DNA of 20,000 nt from an uncultured virus (IMG/VR IMGVR_UViG_3300034062_004002) (taxonomy: Duplodnaviria > Heunggongvirae > Uroviricota > Caudoviricetes): the IMG/VR virus record IMGVR_UViG_3300034062_004002, one strand, 5' to 3'. Both the position numbers and the translations under genes were made by a program. The notes below the pieces were generated by a model. The model did not search any database and had not been told where the DNA came from. It was given only the letters and a program-made list of their open reading frames with translations. Positions 354 through 18,595 of this stretch are shown here, in pieces. How positions within the stretch are numbered: position 1 is the first letter of the stretch; each line of letters opens with the position of its first letter.

Positions 354-384
354 AAATAAAAAACCCCTCCGAATAGAAGGGGTT
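354..384 (-). terminator. Intrinsic terminator closing the large ncRNA
   Basis: Minus-strand stem AACCCCUUC/GGAGGGGUU (384-376 with 370-362) followed by UUUUAUUU. Confidence 0.8.
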
Positions 385-390
385 AAAAAA

Positions 391-853
391 GTCAGACACT
401 CACACCGATAGGGTTCACATCGGAACTGACGTTAGGTTATATAGTATCCCTTAACTGCTATTATCCCTCCCGACTATCCCTTTTGAGTTAAAGAGCTTAG
501 TAACCATCCATCGGGGGTTTCTACTTTCACACTCCGTCCATGTTTACTTATCTAATCGATGCGTCATAGAGTTTTCAACATAGCGTTCAGTGCTATCCTC
601 AGAACATCTTCACCCTACCCCCAAAGTTACGTGGTGAGTCTCACTCGGAAGAAGAGTGTATATTGTAAGATTGTTCAGTATTCTTACAACTTGTGGATTG
701 TATTACGACTAATTAAAGCCCCTTACCCCCTTAACCCATAATGGGGAATCCTTACCTAACCTGTGTAGCCTCCCCCATAGCCTTGAAGCCTTCAAGTCAG
801 GTTCACACGCCATAACAGTCGGATATCTCTGTTAATCGTGGGGTCTTATTTTG
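391..853 (-). ncRNA. Candidate large structured non-coding RNA (~460 nt, ~490 nt with terminator)
   Basis: More GC-rich than its flanks and has no credible ORF. Bounded by a full promoter (859-890) and a terminator (354-384). At least nine helices are visible by eye, e.g. 813-818/829-834, 758-763/798-803, 782-787/791-796, 695-699/747-751, 663-670/682-689, 580-584/592-596, 513-518/617-622, 435-439/501-505, 391-395/426-430. Confidence 0.8.
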
Positions 854-858
854 TTCTA

Positions 859-890
859 CAAATGTAGTAATAGTTTTTCAAACTATCAAA
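859..890 (-). promoter_or_regulatory. Complete Bacteroidota primary-sigma promoter (-33 TTTG, -7 TACATTTG)
   Basis: On the minus strand, TTTG (890-887), then a 20-nt spacer, then TACATTTG (866-859). This fits the TTTG-N19-21-TAnnTTTG consensus and no ORF follows. Confidence 0.8.
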
Positions 891-894
891 TATT

Positions 895-988
895 ACCGTG
901 AAATTGGTTAACCACATCGTGAAAGCCGCCCCTCACGCGTTGTTTAAAGGAATCCGATTGCGGCCTCATCCTATTAACTTATCACGGT
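895..988 (-). ncRNA. Candidate 94-nt irregular hairpin RNA directly downstream of tRNA-Leu
   Basis: Nested helices ACCGUGA/UCACGGU (988-982/901-895), GUUAA/UUAAC (978-974/911-907) and GCCGC/GCGGC (964-960/929-925), plus an apical CCUU/GAGG hairpin. Strand inferred from neighbouring genes. Confidence 0.6.
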
Positions 989-992
989 TTTG

Positions 993-1076
993 TACCCTTG
1001 GAGAGATTCGAACTCTCAATGTCGTTATGACTCCTGAACCTAAATCAGGCGGCTATACCAATTTGCCTACGAGGGT
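993..1076 (-). tRNA. trnL: tRNA-Leu (anticodon UAG), CCA not encoded
   Basis: Acceptor ACCCUCG/CAAGGGU (one mismatch), D loop with UGG, anticodon arm CCUGA-UUUAGGU-UCAGG, long variable arm GUC-AUAAC-GAC, T arm GAGAG-UUCGAAU-CUCUC, discriminator A. Confidence 0.95.
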
Positions 1077-1081
1077 ATTTT

Positions 1082-1288
1082 TTATTGTTTCACATACATC
1101 ATCATCTCACGCATTTTGAGAATCAGTAACTCCATTTCATCTTCATTGAGATACATTCTTGGATTTCCTGTTTTATCATCCAATTCTTTTGTTTCTACAA
1201 TGATACCGTCAAATGTTTCTGTTGGATAAACTTCTACATTCTGCTCTTCTGTTGATATTGTTATTTTACACCAAATTTTATTTTTCAT
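1082..1288 (-). CDS. Hypothetical phage protein (68 aa)
   Basis: ATG-initiated ORF packed 1 nt from its upstream neighbour and co-oriented with the cluster. Confidence 0.75.
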   Translation of the reverse strand: MKNKIWCKITISTEEQNVEVYPTETFDGIIVETKELDDKTGNPRMYLNEDEMELLILKMREMMMYVKQ

Positions 1289-1289
1289 A

Positions 1290-1679
1290 TTATTTATTTT
1301 TAGCCATTTCTATTAATCTAATTAGACATTCAAGTTCTGCTTCTTCTGGAGAATGTAAATTAAAACTTTCATCCCAATTATTACTAAAGTCAGTAATCTC
1401 GTAGCACCATTTTTTGGTATCTTGTAATAAGGCAAGTGGATGAATATAACTTATTAAACCATACTTCTCTCTAAACCATCTAAATGATTGAGAGAATGTT
1501 GGTGCATGACAAACATTATCTACCCATTTAAATTGTTCTTTTTCTGATTGAATTTGTATTAATTTAAACGGTATTTCTTTATTATCAGCAAAACTCACAT
1601 AATAACCAAAACAAGGTTCATCAAAGCCTAATTCTTTAAGTGCTAATGCTTGTTCGTATGGTATAAATTCGTTTTTCAT
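1290..1679 (-). CDS. Hypothetical phage protein, paralog of 1872-2342
   Basis: Shares EFxxYxQALALKELGFDEP, APTFSQxFxxFREKY and EEAELxCLIxLIExxKNK with 1872-2342. Confidence 0.9.
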   Translation of the reverse strand: MKNEFIPYEQALALKELGFDEPCFGYYVSFADNKEIPFKLIQIQSEKEQFKWVDNVCHAPTFSQSFRWFREKYGLISYIHPLALLQDTKKWCYEITDFSNNWDESFNLHSPEEAELECLIRLIEMAKNK

Positions 1680-2360: not shown

Positions 2361-2448
2361 TGTTGGAGACAGGATTCGAACCTGTATTCAGGGACTTAAA
2401 GTAAATTCCCCCTCTAAGTTTGTATGGCAACCATTACGCCACTCCAAC
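2361..2448 (-). tRNA. tRNA-like element with a non-canonical D/anticodon region (no assignable anticodon)
   Basis: Perfect acceptor GUUGGAG/CUCCAAC with discriminator A, perfect T arm ACAGG-UUCGAAU-CCUGU, and D-like GGCG-UAAUGGU-UGCC. The centre (AUACAAACUUAGAGGGGGAAUUUACUUUAAGUCCCUGAAU) does not form a 5-bp stem with a 7-nt loop in the canonical position. Confidence 0.7.
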
Positions 2449-7582: not shown

Positions 7583-9304
7583 TTAAGAAGTTGCTAACGC
7601 TTTTTGTTTTAACGTGTCGGTAGCAACATTCATCTTATTTTTAACTCCTCCAAGTAACGGACAGATAAAACTTCCTAACGCTTCTTCGATTTTAGAACCC
7701 AAAGAAGTTTCGTCTAACATATCAACAATTGAGTTTCTAAGTATATCGTAGAACGGACCTTCAAGACCTTTTTCGTGAGTTAATTTTCTAACCGTCCCTT
7801 CAGCAACTGACTTTGAAATTAATTTTGTTAAGAAATTACAATCAGTTAATTTAGGAATGTCCCCAATCGGTAAGTTACCAATAGCGGTGATAACAATACT
7901 TCCTAACCATCCGTTAGAATCCATAGGAGTTAAATGTTCAACTAACCATTTAGCAATGTATTCTTTAAAATATTCCATAATACCATCAGGTGCATGACCA
8001 AATAAACCTTTCAATGTATCCCAAAATCCTTCGTTAATAATTTTTTTGTCAAATCCTTGTGAGTTTAAATAAGTCATTTCAGATAACAATTCATCAAAAA
8101 ACTTATCTTTTTGTTTTTTAGTTTTAAGACTAACATTTTCTGAAATAATTGATAATCTAGCCTTAACTATTTTACCCTCACTTAACACATTTCTTTCTTT
8201 AGTTTTTTTAGTTTCAATTAAACTTTCTCTAATTAGATTTTTTAATTGTTTTTCTTTACTTTCTCTTTGAACTGTTGACCCTGCATTAACATTTAAACTA
8301 TAGTCAGTTAGACCACCTGTTTGTGTTTGTACGGGATTCGCAAATTGTAATCTTTCCGCCGATTTTGCAAATTTAGGGTAATTATTTATACAATTTCTAA
8401 TTACAGGTTTCATCATTTTAAGTCTTTCGGGACTTAACTCTAATTTTTTATCATACGCATTACCGTAAAGTTCAATCGCATTTTTACAAGAAACTTTTCT
8501 TGTTTTTTCATCACCTGATTTAGCACTGTTCACCGCTACATCTAATTTTTTAATAACGTCCGCATCAGCTAAAATATTAGGATTGTAGTACATGTAATAC
8601 GTTGTTTGAAAATCCTTATAAGTTTCAGGATTATCCGATTCAAGTGATAAGTCAGCAACGATATAACCAAAAGAACTTCCTTCAGGTAAATCTTTTTTCT
8701 CAATCCAACCTAATGTTTTCCTTCTTTCAACAGTTTTAGTTGATAAGTCTAAATCGTATTGTTGCGCCCCTTTTTTAACCCAAACTTTTGCGACACCAAT
8801 ATTATTTCCTAAGATTTTAACAAGTTCCTCAGCATAAGGTGAATTCTTATTTTCAATAGTTGTAATTGCATCGGATAGTTTAACTAATGTCCAACCTTCA
8901 CCTACAGGTTTTTCAACACCCTCGTTCCAAGCAACAACTTGATTTGATGTAAATTCAGCTAAACGGCCTAAAGCTTTTTGTTGGTCAGGAGTTAAAATAG
9001 AATCTTGAGTTTTATTTAATTTTTCGCAATACCATTTTGTTGTTCTAACAATTTTACCTGCTTTATCTCCTGTGGTTCTCCACTCTCTTTTTCCATCAGG
9101 GAAGTCAAATACGTGAGGATTAGCTTTATTATCGGGGTTTGTTGATTGTTGGTAAACAACCTCTCCACCCCCCTTTGGGTCAATAAATGGTCCGGTGACT
9201 TTAGGCCAACATCCTGCGGTAAACGCTTTTTGAAGTTTTTCTTCTTTGAATTGAGCTGCCCCTGGATTAAGTACGTCTTCTTTTATAAATCTTTTATTTT
9301 TCAT
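7583..9304 (-). CDS. Hypothetical protein (573 aa), probable virion/internal head protein
   Basis: Long ORF in the TATTTAT-driven operon, with a cluster of [IL]xE sites (LIRESLIE, VLSE, IISE, IINE) ahead of a helical amphipathic C-terminal domain. Confidence 0.6.
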   Translation of the reverse strand: MKNKRFIKEDVLNPGAAQFKEEKLQKAFTAGCWPKVTGPFIDPKGGGEVVYQQSTNPDNKANPHVFDFPDGKREWRTTGDKAGKIVRTTKWYCEKLNKTQDSILTPDQQKALGRLAEFTSNQVVAWNEGVEKPVGEGWTLVKLSDAITTIENKNSPYAEELVKILGNNIGVAKVWVKKGAQQYDLDLSTKTVERRKTLGWIEKKDLPEGSSFGYIVADLSLESDNPETYKDFQTTYYMYYNPNILADADVIKKLDVAVNSAKSGDEKTRKVSCKNAIELYGNAYDKKLELSPERLKMMKPVIRNCINNYPKFAKSAERLQFANPVQTQTGGLTDYSLNVNAGSTVQRESKEKQLKNLIRESLIETKKTKERNVLSEGKIVKARLSIISENVSLKTKKQKDKFFDELLSEMTYLNSQGFDKKIINEGFWDTLKGLFGHAPDGIMEYFKEYIAKWLVEHLTPMDSNGWLGSIVITAIGNLPIGDIPKLTDCNFLTKLISKSVAEGTVRKLTHEKGLEGPFYDILRNSIVDMLDETSLGSKIEEALGSFICPLLGGVKNKMNVATDTLKQKALATS

Positions 9305-9326
9305 ATTTCTTATGTTGTTTTTAATT

Positions 9327-10700
9327 TTAATCTACGTTAGTATATTCCGTTTCTCTATCGGGACCTGGTGACGTTGTAGTAGTAGTTCCACCACAATTAG
9401 CCATAATTTTATCATAAATTTCTTGAGTGATTATCACATCATATCCTTTACTCTTAAGGGCTTTTTCTGTGTCAGAACCAAATTTACCGTCAGACGTTAT
9501 TCCTAAACAATCTTGGATTTTTTTGATGTCATCATTTTTACATCCTTTTTTGTATGGGAATGATGTACAGTTAGTCCATGTGGTTCCACCTCCGTTTGAA
9601 ACACATTTTTCACCATCCCAAGTTTGACCTTCGGGACATTTATCAACATCAGAGACTAACCCTTCACAAGACATCGCATAATCAGTTCCATTAACAGTTA
9701 TAACTATACCACTATCCGTTTCGTCCCATTTTCCTGTATATTTGTCATTTCCTGTGACAAATTTTTTATCATCAAAAAATTTACCACCACCATTTGTATC
9801 AATAGCCTTATTACCCGTATCAGTTATTAACACATAGTCCAAACCTTCTTCACCCATTTTTTGTAAATCCTCTTCTGGAATATTTTTACTAATACAGTCA
9901 GGGAATGGTTTTGAGCCTTCGTCCATCCACCATCTATATAAAAGATATAGTCCACCTGCGGCTAACAGATATTTAAATATTTTACCTCTTGTCATACCAA
10001 CAATTTTAGTTTTGAAACTTTGCCACATTGTTGGTTTTCCTGGTATCGGTTTTAAGTTTTTAGGTCTTTGTTTTACAGGTAGTTTTGTATTTTTTACAGG
10101 AGGGGTTTTACCACCTTTGACAGGAGGGGTTTTACCACCTTTGACAGGGGATATTTTACTAAGACCTTTTTTATTTGCAAATTTTGCAGCAATTTCGTCC
10201 GCGATTGCTGGGTCGTATCCTTTTTTAACTAAACTCTTACTAACTTGGGTCTGAGTCATGTTCGCATATCTAACGTCTTTAACCGCCATGTCCGCGGCTT
10301 TATTAGTAAGTGTAGTTCTTAAACTACCTGTGGCCTTACCTGTTTTCATAAGTCCTTTTGCTAATTCACTTAATTGGGCTTTATTTAACGTATTTTTGAT
10401 TAACGCGGTCATAACTTCATCACCACTACTTAAACCTATTTTTCCGTATATTTTAACATCATTAAATAACGTAACACCAGCCGTATATTTAAGGTTTCTT
10501 GTTGTTTTTAAAGCTAAAGCCGCCGCTTCATCACTAGTTCCCAAAATCGATTTAAGCAAGGCTTTACCCGTTTGTTCGGAAATTATTTTTTTGGACTCAA
10601 CCAATTTAATTATCTCTATGTTTTCACTTAACGTGTTTTTACTATCATAACTCATTAATAGTTTTACTCTGTTAAGTTCTTCTAATACTATGTTTTTCAT
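9327..10700 (-). CDS. Probable virion protein with a transmembrane helix and a C-terminal peptidoglycan-binding-like domain
   Basis: N-terminal EELNRVKLLMSYDSKNTLSEN leader, Lys/Pro repeats, hydrophobic IFKYLLAAGGLYLLYRWW, and C-terminal KKGCKNDDIKKIQDCLGITSDGKFGSDTEKAL matching the PG_binding_1 pattern (G....V..lQ..L...DG.FG..T..A). Confidence 0.7.
   Translation of the reverse strand: MKNIVLEELNRVKLLMSYDSKNTLSENIEIIKLVESKKIISEQTGKALLKSILGTSDEAAALALKTTRNLKYTAGVTLFNDVKIYGKIGLSSGDEVMTALIKNTLNKAQLSELAKGLMKTGKATGSLRTTLTNKAADMAVKDVRYANMTQTQVSKSLVKKGYDPAIADEIAAKFANKKGLSKISPVKGGKTPPVKGGKTPPVKNTKLPVKQRPKNLKPIPGKPTMWQSFKTKIVGMTRGKIFKYLLAAGGLYLLYRWWMDEGSKPFPDCISKNIPEEDLQKMGEEGLDYVLITDTGNKAIDTNGGGKFFDDKKFVTGNDKYTGKWDETDSGIVITVNGTDYAMSCEGLVSDVDKCPEGQTWDGEKCVSNGGGTTWTNCTSFPYKKGCKNDDIKKIQDCLGITSDGKFGSDTEKALKSKGYDVIITQEIYDKIMANCGGTTTTTSPGPDRETEYTNVD
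10096..10148. repeat. In-frame 24-bp tandem repeat (2.2 copies) encoding PVKGGKTP
   Basis: ACAGGAGGGGTTTTACCACCTTTG at 10096-10119 and 10120-10143, then ACAGG. Confidence 0.9.
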
Positions 10701-18175: not shown

Positions 18176-18595
18176 ATGAAAAAAATACTGTATATTGTTA
18201 GAGGGATTCCGGGTTCAGGAAAATCAACTTTTGCCGAAAAATTAGTTGGTGAAGACTTTTTAGTTTGTGAGGCGGACAAATATTTTATTGATAAAGAAAC
18301 GGGTGAATATAAATTTGACGTTTCTAAAATCAAAAATGCTCATAAATTCTGTCAAGATAGGGTGGAAACCTATATGAAAGATTCATTATTGAATGACCAA
18401 TTTTATCGAGAAATCGCGGTATCTAATACGTTCACACAAGAGTGGGAAATGGAAATCTATTTCAAATTAGCGAAACAATATGATTATACTGTTTTTACGG
18501 TGATTGTCGAAAATCGTCATGGTGGGGTAAATCAACACGGAGTTCCTGAAGATAAGATTCAATTAATGAAAGATAGGTTTGAAATAAAATTATAA
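18176..18595 (+). CDS. P-loop kinase (AAA_33 / N4BP2-like polynucleotide-kinase type)
   Basis: Walker A RGIPGSGKST, EADKYF, AHKFCQ, VSNTFTQEWE and NQHGVPEDKIQLM. Confidence 0.88.
   Translation: MKKILYIVRGIPGSGKSTFAEKLVGEDFLVCEADKYFIDKETGEYKFDVSKIKNAHKFCQDRVETYMKDSLLNDQFYREIAVSNTFTQEWEMEIYFKLAKQYDYTVFTVIVENRHGGVNQHGVPEDKIQLMKDRFEIKL

Follow-up and report, generated by a model that had tools for sequence, protein, structure and literature searches.

What kind of gene lies in the half-kilobase near the beginning of IMG/VR virus record IMGVR_UViG_3300034062_004002, the record of an uncultured member of the Caudoviricetes, where no plausible reading frame can be drawn? The window analysed here comprises 20,000 nucleotides (nt) of this record. 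For positions 354 to 890 the initial annotation had proposed a stand-alone, highly structured phage RNA with its own promoter and terminator, regarded either as a short variant of the GOLLD/ROOL class or as a member of an undescribed class of large RNAs. The locus is a minus-strand gene extending from about position 853 to 385 (or 356), and its product is a non-coding RNA of ∼470 nt (404-537 nt across relatives). That this is a real, structured RNA of a new family can be stated with high confidence, and the whole explanation developed below, in which the gene is taken together with its proposed biogenesis and function, is held with moderate confidence.

The limits of the gene are given by the following features, the two promoter boxes having been read from the sequence.

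887..890, minus strand: TTTG, the -33-like element of a Bacteroidota-type promoter, with 20 nt between it and the TACATTTG box
859..866, minus strand: -7 box TACATTTG (TAnnTTTG) of the same promoter
356..853, minus strand: predicted transcript, its 5' end placed a few nt past the -7 box
385..847, minus strand: conserved core of the RNA, running from AAGACCCCAC through the 3' hairpin and its U run, delimited by the family model and alignment A1 (see below)
390-385 or 361-356, minus strand: predicted 3' end of the transcript, in the U run of the core or in that of the second terminator
362..384, minus strand: extra canonical intrinsic terminator of the window's subgroup only, followed by its own U run (361-356)

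Eleven nucleotides separate the TACATTTG box from the conserved start AAGACCCC (847-840), and the interval closes with a large hairpin and a U run (433-385). The terminator beyond it has 9 pairs, 5 of them G-C, and in the alignment it is found only in rows ending ...AACCC(C), namely the window, L059, L064 and L067. Both the consensus Bacteroidota promoter and the clean terminator of the initial annotation are thus present. A terminator scan gave 3 terminator-like sites against an expectation of 0.5, and a sigma-70 promoter scan stayed at the chance level (2 found, 2.1 expected). The longest open reading frame (ORF) on the minus strand downstream of the promoter does not exceed 34 amino acids (aa).

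Relatives of the RNA were collected by core-pattern scans, exact and degenerate, of viral contigs (11, 21, 51 and 60 loci) and of metagenome contigs (55 loci). A family hidden Markov model (HMM), run with nhmmer, matches 138 of the 138 loci collected, which yield 75 distinct complete copies; 10 further distinct copies came from a later scan of viral contigs (85 rows in all). Record G001 (22 kb) is identical to the window over 300-1100. Between loci the RNA is 80-94% identical, and the flanks of most loci cannot be aligned with each other. Every carrier is a lake or freshwater viral or metagenome contig, the DNA runs holding the stretch are likewise lake or freshwater metagenomes (14 of them with at least 0.86 of the sampled words), and the degenerate core pattern had no match in 185,579 cellular genomes, one per bacterial or archaeal species. 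Each of the five large contigs examined holds one copy. The largest carrier contigs measure 299-312 kb, and CheckV rates two carriers as complete; the carriers are therefore jumbo phages, and the family is restricted, so far, to giant lake phages.

Folding energy alone gives no support for the term “highly structured”: the minimum free energy of the RNA was no better than that of shuffled sequences (z = -0.41 for the minus strand and -0.10 for the plus strand), a point that counts against the explanation, although these z-scores are in themselves uninformative. The covariation among homologues that the initial annotation had put forward as a check is, however, strong. All structure counts refer, unless stated otherwise, to alignment A1 of the 75 distinct complete copies. 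In total, 14 helices with 76 pairs were named, including nine nested ones (H1-H7, and H8 enclosing H9) and five pseudoknots (PK-A to PK-E). Standard pairs occupy 95.6% of the cells compared with 84.3±0.2% in column shuffles, none of 500 shuffles being as high, and both-sided changes occur at 52 of the 76 pairs compared with 31.5±2.1 in shuffles. When the partners were moved by 1-3 columns, pairing fell to 34-45% and only 15-22 pairs showed both-sided changes. The many conserved G-U pairs establish the minus strand as that of the RNA. The elements of the fold, in 5' to 3' order, are these.

813..834, minus strand: hairpin H1 (834-829 with 818-813); 4 of 6 pairs changed on both sides, 99.3% of cells pair
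748..824, minus strand: PK-A, H1 loop AUCC (824-821) with GGAU (751-748); 4 of 4 pairs changed on both sides
767..801, minus strand: hairpin H2 (801-797 with 786-782) and PK-B, H2 loop (790-787) with 770-767; covariation in each
694..747, minus strand: H-type pseudoknot in which H3 is interleaved with PK-C; covariation
747-743 with 730-726, minus strand: H3; covariation
738-733 with 699-694, minus strand: PK-C; covariation
720-717 with 710-707, minus strand: hairpin H4 in the connecting loop of H3/PK-C, with an invariant UUAA in its loop
602..690, minus strand: region of H5, PK-D and H6
690-682 with 670-662, minus strand: hairpin H5; 7 of 9 pairs changed on both sides
676-672 with 606-602, minus strand: PK-D, H5 loop GAACA with UGUUC
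658-654 with 646-642, minus strand: hairpin H6, between H5 and the 3' strand of PK-D; covariation
618..637, minus strand: tentative local imperfect hairpin (637-632 with 623-618) with loop CGUAACUU, from 85 rows
529..593, minus strand: variable-length hairpin H7, base 593-589 with 533-529; 5 of 5 pairs changed on both sides
466..517, minus strand: helix H8 (517-511 with 473-466, A468 bulged); 6 of 7 pairs changed on both sides
495-490 with 483-478, minus strand: hairpin H9 inside H8; 6 of 6 pairs changed on both sides
410..453, minus strand: PK-E, single strand 453-449 with the loop of the 3' hairpin; 5 of 5 pairs changed on both sides
385..433, minus strand: 3' terminal hairpin H10, outer stem 433-426 with 395-388, inner stem CCGAU/AUCGG, then the U run

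Nearly every hairpin loop is tied down by one of the five loop-to-strand pseudoknots, and the compensatory changes are seen in these as well as in the nested stems. In the case of PK-A, at least five combinations occur (AUCC/GGAU, ACUC/GAGU, AUCU/AGAU, ACCA/UGGU and GCUC/GAGU). Pair 797-786 of H2 is AU in 58 copies and GC in 17, pair 789-768 of PK-B is GC in 58, UA in 11, GU in 4 and AU in 2, and pair 675-603 of PK-D is AU in 41 and GC in 31; pair 800-783 of H2 is non-standard in 70 of the 75 copies. The centre pair of PK-E (alignment columns 530-534 with 578-582) is CG in 38, UA in 20 and GC in 13, its register in the window, AGGG (452-449) with CCCU (413-410), being read from the window sequence. 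Pair 744-729, which is CG in 43 copies and UA in 31, co-varies with base 700 (C or U); this hints at a base triple of the three, clade linkage being equally possible. In the outer stem of H10, 7 of 8 pairs covary in an alignment of 53 sequences, and a U-rich tail is present in most rows of A1. The RNA varies in length at three places: ACACAGG is followed by an insert of 40-80 nt or by none, the H6 loop differs in a single copy, and H7 exists in four alternative forms, a 16-nt stub among them. All 75 copies share long invariant junction stretches.

The initial annotation had described an interval packed with nested helices and, in addition, three long-range pairings: GGGGGU (622-617) with ACCCCC (518-513), ACCCUA of the 3' hairpin with UAGGGU (617-612), and the loop UUCUUCC with GGAGGGA (470-464). 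These fail a joint covariation test on the 75 sequences, since 59.1% of the cells pair compared with 58.5% in shuffles, a slide by +1 raises this to 68%, and both-sided changes are limited to 2 of 18 pairs. The partners backed by covariation are others: 473-466 for ACCCCC and 453-449 for the 3' hairpin loop; the run GGGGG (622-618) lies in the tentative local hairpin with 637-632. In the 85 rows, pair 634-621 of this hairpin reads CG in 83 and UA in 2, no variation is seen at pairs 633-622 and 632-623, and 58 of 82 rows have a non-standard pair 635-620. Divergent copies have GGUCA with UGACU. The promoter, the terminator, the lack of an ORF and the wealth of helices (14 with 76 pairs, by covariation) were therefore borne out, while the excess folding stability and the three long-range pairings were not.

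Several other candidate pairings were also rejected. A helix of 839-834 with 691-686 clashes with H1 and H5, and the pair 811-517, like many high-scoring single pairs in the 3' domain, is unstacked and looks like clade hitch-hiking. As to the 5' ACCCC (844-840) with GGGGU (621-617), one side is invariant and the G run changes without compensation in a few rows.

Of the sampled words of 300-1100, 26-32% are present in each of six lake metatranscriptome runs. In four of the six, from four studies, assembled contigs were aligned to 200-1200 at a likeness of at least 90%. These contigs from RNA libraries cover ∼391-848 only, the parts of the window without such cover being no evidence of silence. 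Peak word depth is 802 in X15, 21.8 in X16, 24.5 in X17 and 14.9 in X18, compared with 0-2.3 at 200-335 and 0 at 982-1200; against a literal use of this comparison, the conserved core pools the reads of many relatives, and its depth is not comparable with that of phage-specific flanks. One contig of 523 nt covers 391-841 and represents a variant with an 80-nt insert. Contigs running past 848 into the upstream sequence have a depth 10-30 times below that of the core contigs. The RNA is thus seen in the libraries as a discrete block at ∼391-848, but the contigs show neither strand nor ends, and DNA can occur in RNA libraries. Taken as a whole, the block is evidence that the RNA accumulates in nature.

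The comparison with Rfam 15, likewise suggested in the initial annotation, gave no family match on the RNA. At gathering scores only tRNAs were found in the window; at E≤10 the region 250-1100 gave nothing but terminator-like chance matches at 355-425, and at E≤5 no family fell on the RNA in 10 diverse homologues. No published description of the RNA was found in the literature, including the portion of bioRxiv 10.64898/2026.09.22.753630 that was available. In the partly available material of Fremin et al. 2023 (PMC10690425), six contig identifiers are absent from six of the nine supplement files, and the RNA may be among the 8,495 unnamed IMG/VR candidates. Of the two possibilities raised initially, the undescribed class of large RNAs is thus supported by the lack of an Rfam 15 match, the strong covariation and the confinement of the RNA-library contigs to the element. 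Membership in GOLLD or ROOL is not, as neither model matches the RNA, the family HMM finds nothing in five GOLLD loci, and a separate GOLLD gene is co-resident. The RNA represents a new family, and a candidate for a new Rfam entry, within a known kind, the ornate phage RNAs of tRNA islands. The kinship with GOLLD and ROOL is one of kind, not of family: phage origin, tRNA island, many pseudoknots and abundance.

How the RNA is made is best approached from its surroundings, which contribute two further features.

992..1076, minus strand: tRNA-Leu (anticodon UAG), upstream on the same strand (Rfam 51.8 bits; ARAGORN)
891..990, minus strand: optional upstream structured element of type 2 (∼99 nt), kept in L006, L009, L010, L039 and L101

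A same-strand tRNA gene lies within 150 nt of 42 of the 75 distinct copies. In 32 of the 75 a tRNA follows within 40 nt and starts 0-16 nt past the U-rich tail, and in 7 the copy begins 0-5 nt past the 3' end of a tRNA. A TAnnTTTG box ending 9-14 nt before AAGACCCC is found in 16 of the 75 homologues. The promoter-bearing block of the window is an insertion of ∼45 nt relative to its closest relatives L006, L009 and L010, and it separates the type 2 element, present in 5 of the 75 copies, from the core; the RNA-library contigs that join 912-973 to 848 represent the form without this insertion. A type 1 element (∼60 nt, with conserved GAACCGUGAG... and covarying stems) precedes 18 of the 75 copies, for example L004, L005 and L072. 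Neither 5' element has a match in Rfam, and in several copies the promoter box precedes the optional element. The term “stand-alone” used in the initial annotation therefore suits the window but not the relatives, in which the RNA forms part of tRNA operons.

The RNA is inferred to arise in two ways, one from a promoter and terminator of its own and the other by release from a tRNA operon transcript. In the window, host RNA polymerase would start at the TTTG/TAnnTTTG promoter, early transcription being suggested by the motif alone, and would stop at the U run past the knotted 3' hairpin or at the back-up terminator. In most relatives the RNA stands head-to-tail with tRNAs and would presumably be excised from the operon transcript by tRNA-processing enzymes, RNase P cutting at the downstream tRNA.

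The same tRNA arrays hold further genes. Directly 3' of the RNA, several relatives (L025, L037, L054) have long tRNA-like genes that begin GUCAGGU... and carry an extra internal arm, and some of the downstream genes are labelled “tRNA-???” by ARAGORN. The freshwater-1 motif (RF02979) was found in L009 (2141-2202, 84.2 bits) and, just below the 72-bit cut-off, in L085 (388-449, 68.7 bits). In L035, a sub-threshold match to YrlA (Y RNA-like) lies upstream of the RNA (1286-1418, minus strand; 37.9 bits, E 3e-5). In the window itself, positions 2361-2448 (minus strand) give a weak tRNA match of 88 nt (32.5 bits) which is not called by ARAGORN and may be unusual or interrupted.

As for the proteins of the window, two small ORFs on the minus strand, 1290-1679 and 1872-2342 (129 and 156 aa), look like paralogues with common N-terminal (…ALALKELGFDEP…) and C-terminal (…EEAEL.CLI.LIE..KNK) stretches, and neither matches a PHROG. 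The plus-strand gene at 18176-18595 encodes a 139-aa P-loop protein of the phage ATPase family phrog_2071 (2.4e-37); it has weaker matches to polynucleotide-kinase/RNA-ligase families (∼1e-7) and may be involved in RNA repair. In the GenBank collection of isolated phages only the tRNA-Leu part matched, in 5 Pseudomonas jumbo phages, and the 573-aa window protein had no match among isolated phages. The closest relatives of the 341-aa dehydrogenase-like protein are encoded by uncultured huge phages, the crAss-like phage cr108_1 and Prevotella Lak phages. These relatives, together with the promoter type, weakly suggest a Bacteroidota host.

What, then, might such an RNA do? It is stable, present once per genome and confined to phages; its fold is compact, with multiple pseudoknots, and its junctions are under strong constraint. 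It may act in trans, as a compact folded particle, and not as a cis regulator. The best guess would be an RNA-built scaffold or assembly of the GOLLD/ROOL kind, serving the phage tRNAs and the takeover of translation, and some of the “pseudoknots” may then form between copies. By analogy, a GOLLD/ROOL-like mode of action is possible and is ranked first, followed by a protein-binding decoy and then by a ribozyme, yet it should be regarded as tentative. It is rather doubtful that the RNA belongs to a new functional class, either as a second building block which in lake jumbo phages would assemble into a mixed RNA particle, its partner being another copy of itself or the co-resident GOLLD, or as a large ribozyme punctuating tRNA operons, which would free itself or the tRNAs without host enzymes. 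In either case some of the five covarying pseudoknots could be intermolecular, as for ROOL and GOLLD.

A decoy or sponge, that is, a folded RNA which would bind and hold a protein of the host or of the phage (for instance a nuclease, a defence sensor or a translation factor), is the alternative that survives best, doubtful as it is. The high conservation of the unpaired G-rich junctions and the abundance in RNA libraries are in line with it, and the other small RNAs of these islands (freshwater-1 and the sub-threshold YrlA-like match) suggest a cluster of RNA tools. Nevertheless, no protein gene is consistently adjacent, the flanks differing between loci, and known protein-binding motifs were not identified.

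A ribozyme, which would either cleave itself off from the tRNA or leader upstream, so releasing its 5' end, or act on phage pre-tRNAs, seems unlikely, and somewhat more so than a decoy. HDV-like, hatchet and glmS ribozymes cleave at their own 5' edge, and here conservation starts abruptly at (A/U)AGACCCC whatever lies upstream, be it the 3' end of a tRNA, the 60-nt element or a promoter. The multi-pseudoknot fold with its variable peripheral arms, the junction stretches that are invariant in 75 sequences while the stems covary, and the 10- to 30-fold lower depth of the contigs reaching upstream of 848 would all suit such a molecule. On the other hand, no known ribozyme family matches, cleavage would not be needed in promoter-driven copies, whose leader is a few nt long, and tRNA-processing enzymes suffice for both ends, which the contigs cannot show.

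It is very improbable that the RNA is an extremely divergent form of a known large RNA (RNase P, tmRNA, GOLLD, ROOL, a group I intron or a fragment of rRNA). This idea draws on short look-alike strings, as GGUAGGGUGAAG resembles GGUAAGGGUGAAAG of RNase P, and AAGACCCC and GUGAACCU resemble strings of 23S rRNA (each checked against the Escherichia coli sequence). Like RNase P class A (RF00010), the RNA has pseudoknots, variable peripheral hairpins, a similar size, a link to tRNA genes and one short string in common. An RNase P specificity domain, suspected from GGUAGGGUGAAG and GUAGAAACCC, was nevertheless rejected, as RF00010 had no matches and the topology of rnpB is different. In 5 carrier contigs the model matched none at E≤10, its controls having matched in 11 of 14 genomes. 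In E. coli rnpB (Rfam alignment) GGUAAGGGUGAAAG forms the 3' strand of a long hairpin and is followed by a 7-nt junction and the next hairpin; in the RNA studied here the similar string precedes a pseudoknot strand, so that its structural setting is another one, and P4-type CR-I/CR-V pairing was not found. The notion of a 23S rRNA or L1-stalk mimic fell likewise, for the similarity to E. coli 23S rRNA, the only one compared, is not significant: nhmmer with loose filters gave no match, and the Smith-Waterman score of 30 compares with 29.2±3.4 in shuffles, 73 of 200 being as good. With tmRNA the RNA has in common the size of ∼350-450 nt, several pseudoknots and an occasional phage location among tRNAs, but it lacks a tRNA-like domain, a T arm and a tag frame, and the variable hairpin where a tag might sit is deleted in several copies. 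ARAGORN reports only tRNA-Leu in the window, and the tmRNA models of Rfam, like those of GOLLD and ROOL, do not match the RNA.

That the locus is a riboswitch or cis-regulatory leader for the downstream gene (343-2, minus strand), which starts ∼13-28 nt past the terminator, or a coding stretch in another genetic code can practically be dismissed. Two terminators lie between the RNA and that gene, and the neighbour on the downstream side varies among loci, being a tRNA within 40 nt in 32 of the 75 copies. Nor do the 75 homologues keep a reading frame: the stretch homologous to the longest ORF of the interval (559-741 on the plus strand) stays open and in frame in only 12 of them, its length is 0, 1 or 2 modulo 3 in 21, 37 and 17 copies, and its indels do not come in threes.

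The GOLLD/ROOL-like assembly, which remains the preferred reading, has to be judged against what is known of these two RNAs. According to the available part of PMC12286853, both are phage RNAs found near tRNA islands, with multiple pseudoknots and of unknown function, which form RNA-only nanocages; ROOL can equal 16S rRNA in abundance, and several tertiary pairs predicted by covariation turned out to be intermolecular. One must bear in mind that covariation alone cannot separate pairing within a molecule from pairing between molecules. A number of points weigh against the analogy. All five pseudoknots are sterically plausible inside one molecule. Many GOLLD RNAs exceed 800 nt according to the same part of that source, so that the RNA of ∼470 nt is about half their size, and its junctions are far more conserved than is described there for GOLLD and ROOL, a pattern no less in keeping with a catalytic or binding core. 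The family HMM found nothing (nhmmer, E≤10) in five GOLLD loci of these phages with 1.5-kb flanks, the variable 5' half of GOLLD included, and one of the two CheckV-complete carrier genomes is without GOLLD.

Among large, intricately folded RNAs of bacteria and phages, which are few, RNase P, tmRNA, OLE, GOLLD and ROOL have each revealed unexpected chemistry or architecture. With 75 distinct variants, five pseudoknots backed by covariation, a possible base triple and clear domain boundaries, the RNA described here makes a good case for structural and functional work. The likeness to ROOL lies in the phage or prophage origin near tRNA islands, the multiple pseudoknots and the high abundance (as given for ROOL in the available part of PMC12286853). 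However, ROOL belongs to the rumen and the Lactobacillales, whereas the habitat of the present RNA is lakes; the ROOL model (RF03087) matched the RNA neither in the window nor in the 10 homologues, and it matched none of 5 carrier contigs, in a search whose controls matched nowhere, so that absence from the carriers is not shown. The GOLLD model (RF02032), which represents the conserved 3' domain, does not match the RNA either (E≤10 in the window, E≤5 in the 10 homologues), and the two show no likeness in sequence; GOLLD is a separate gene, 7-30 kb away. It is found above the cut-off elsewhere in 5 of 10 carrier contigs (3 of 5 and 2 of 5; 317-327 bits), in G001 at 9060-9464 (minus strand, 319 bits), that is, ∼7 kb beyond window position 1 and on the same strand as the RNA. 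Further GOLLD loci are L143-L146, and tRNA-Met adjoins GOLLD in 3 of 5 loci. Both are large phage-encoded RNAs that occur in lake metagenomes, lie in or near tRNA islands and are rich in covarying helices and pseudoknots; in the case of the new family, all carriers are viral or lake contigs and 42 of 75 copies have a same-strand tRNA gene beside them. The co-residence of the two in uncultured jumbo phages raises the possibility of joint action and returns attention to the purpose of phage tRNA islands, a question open since GOLLD was described.

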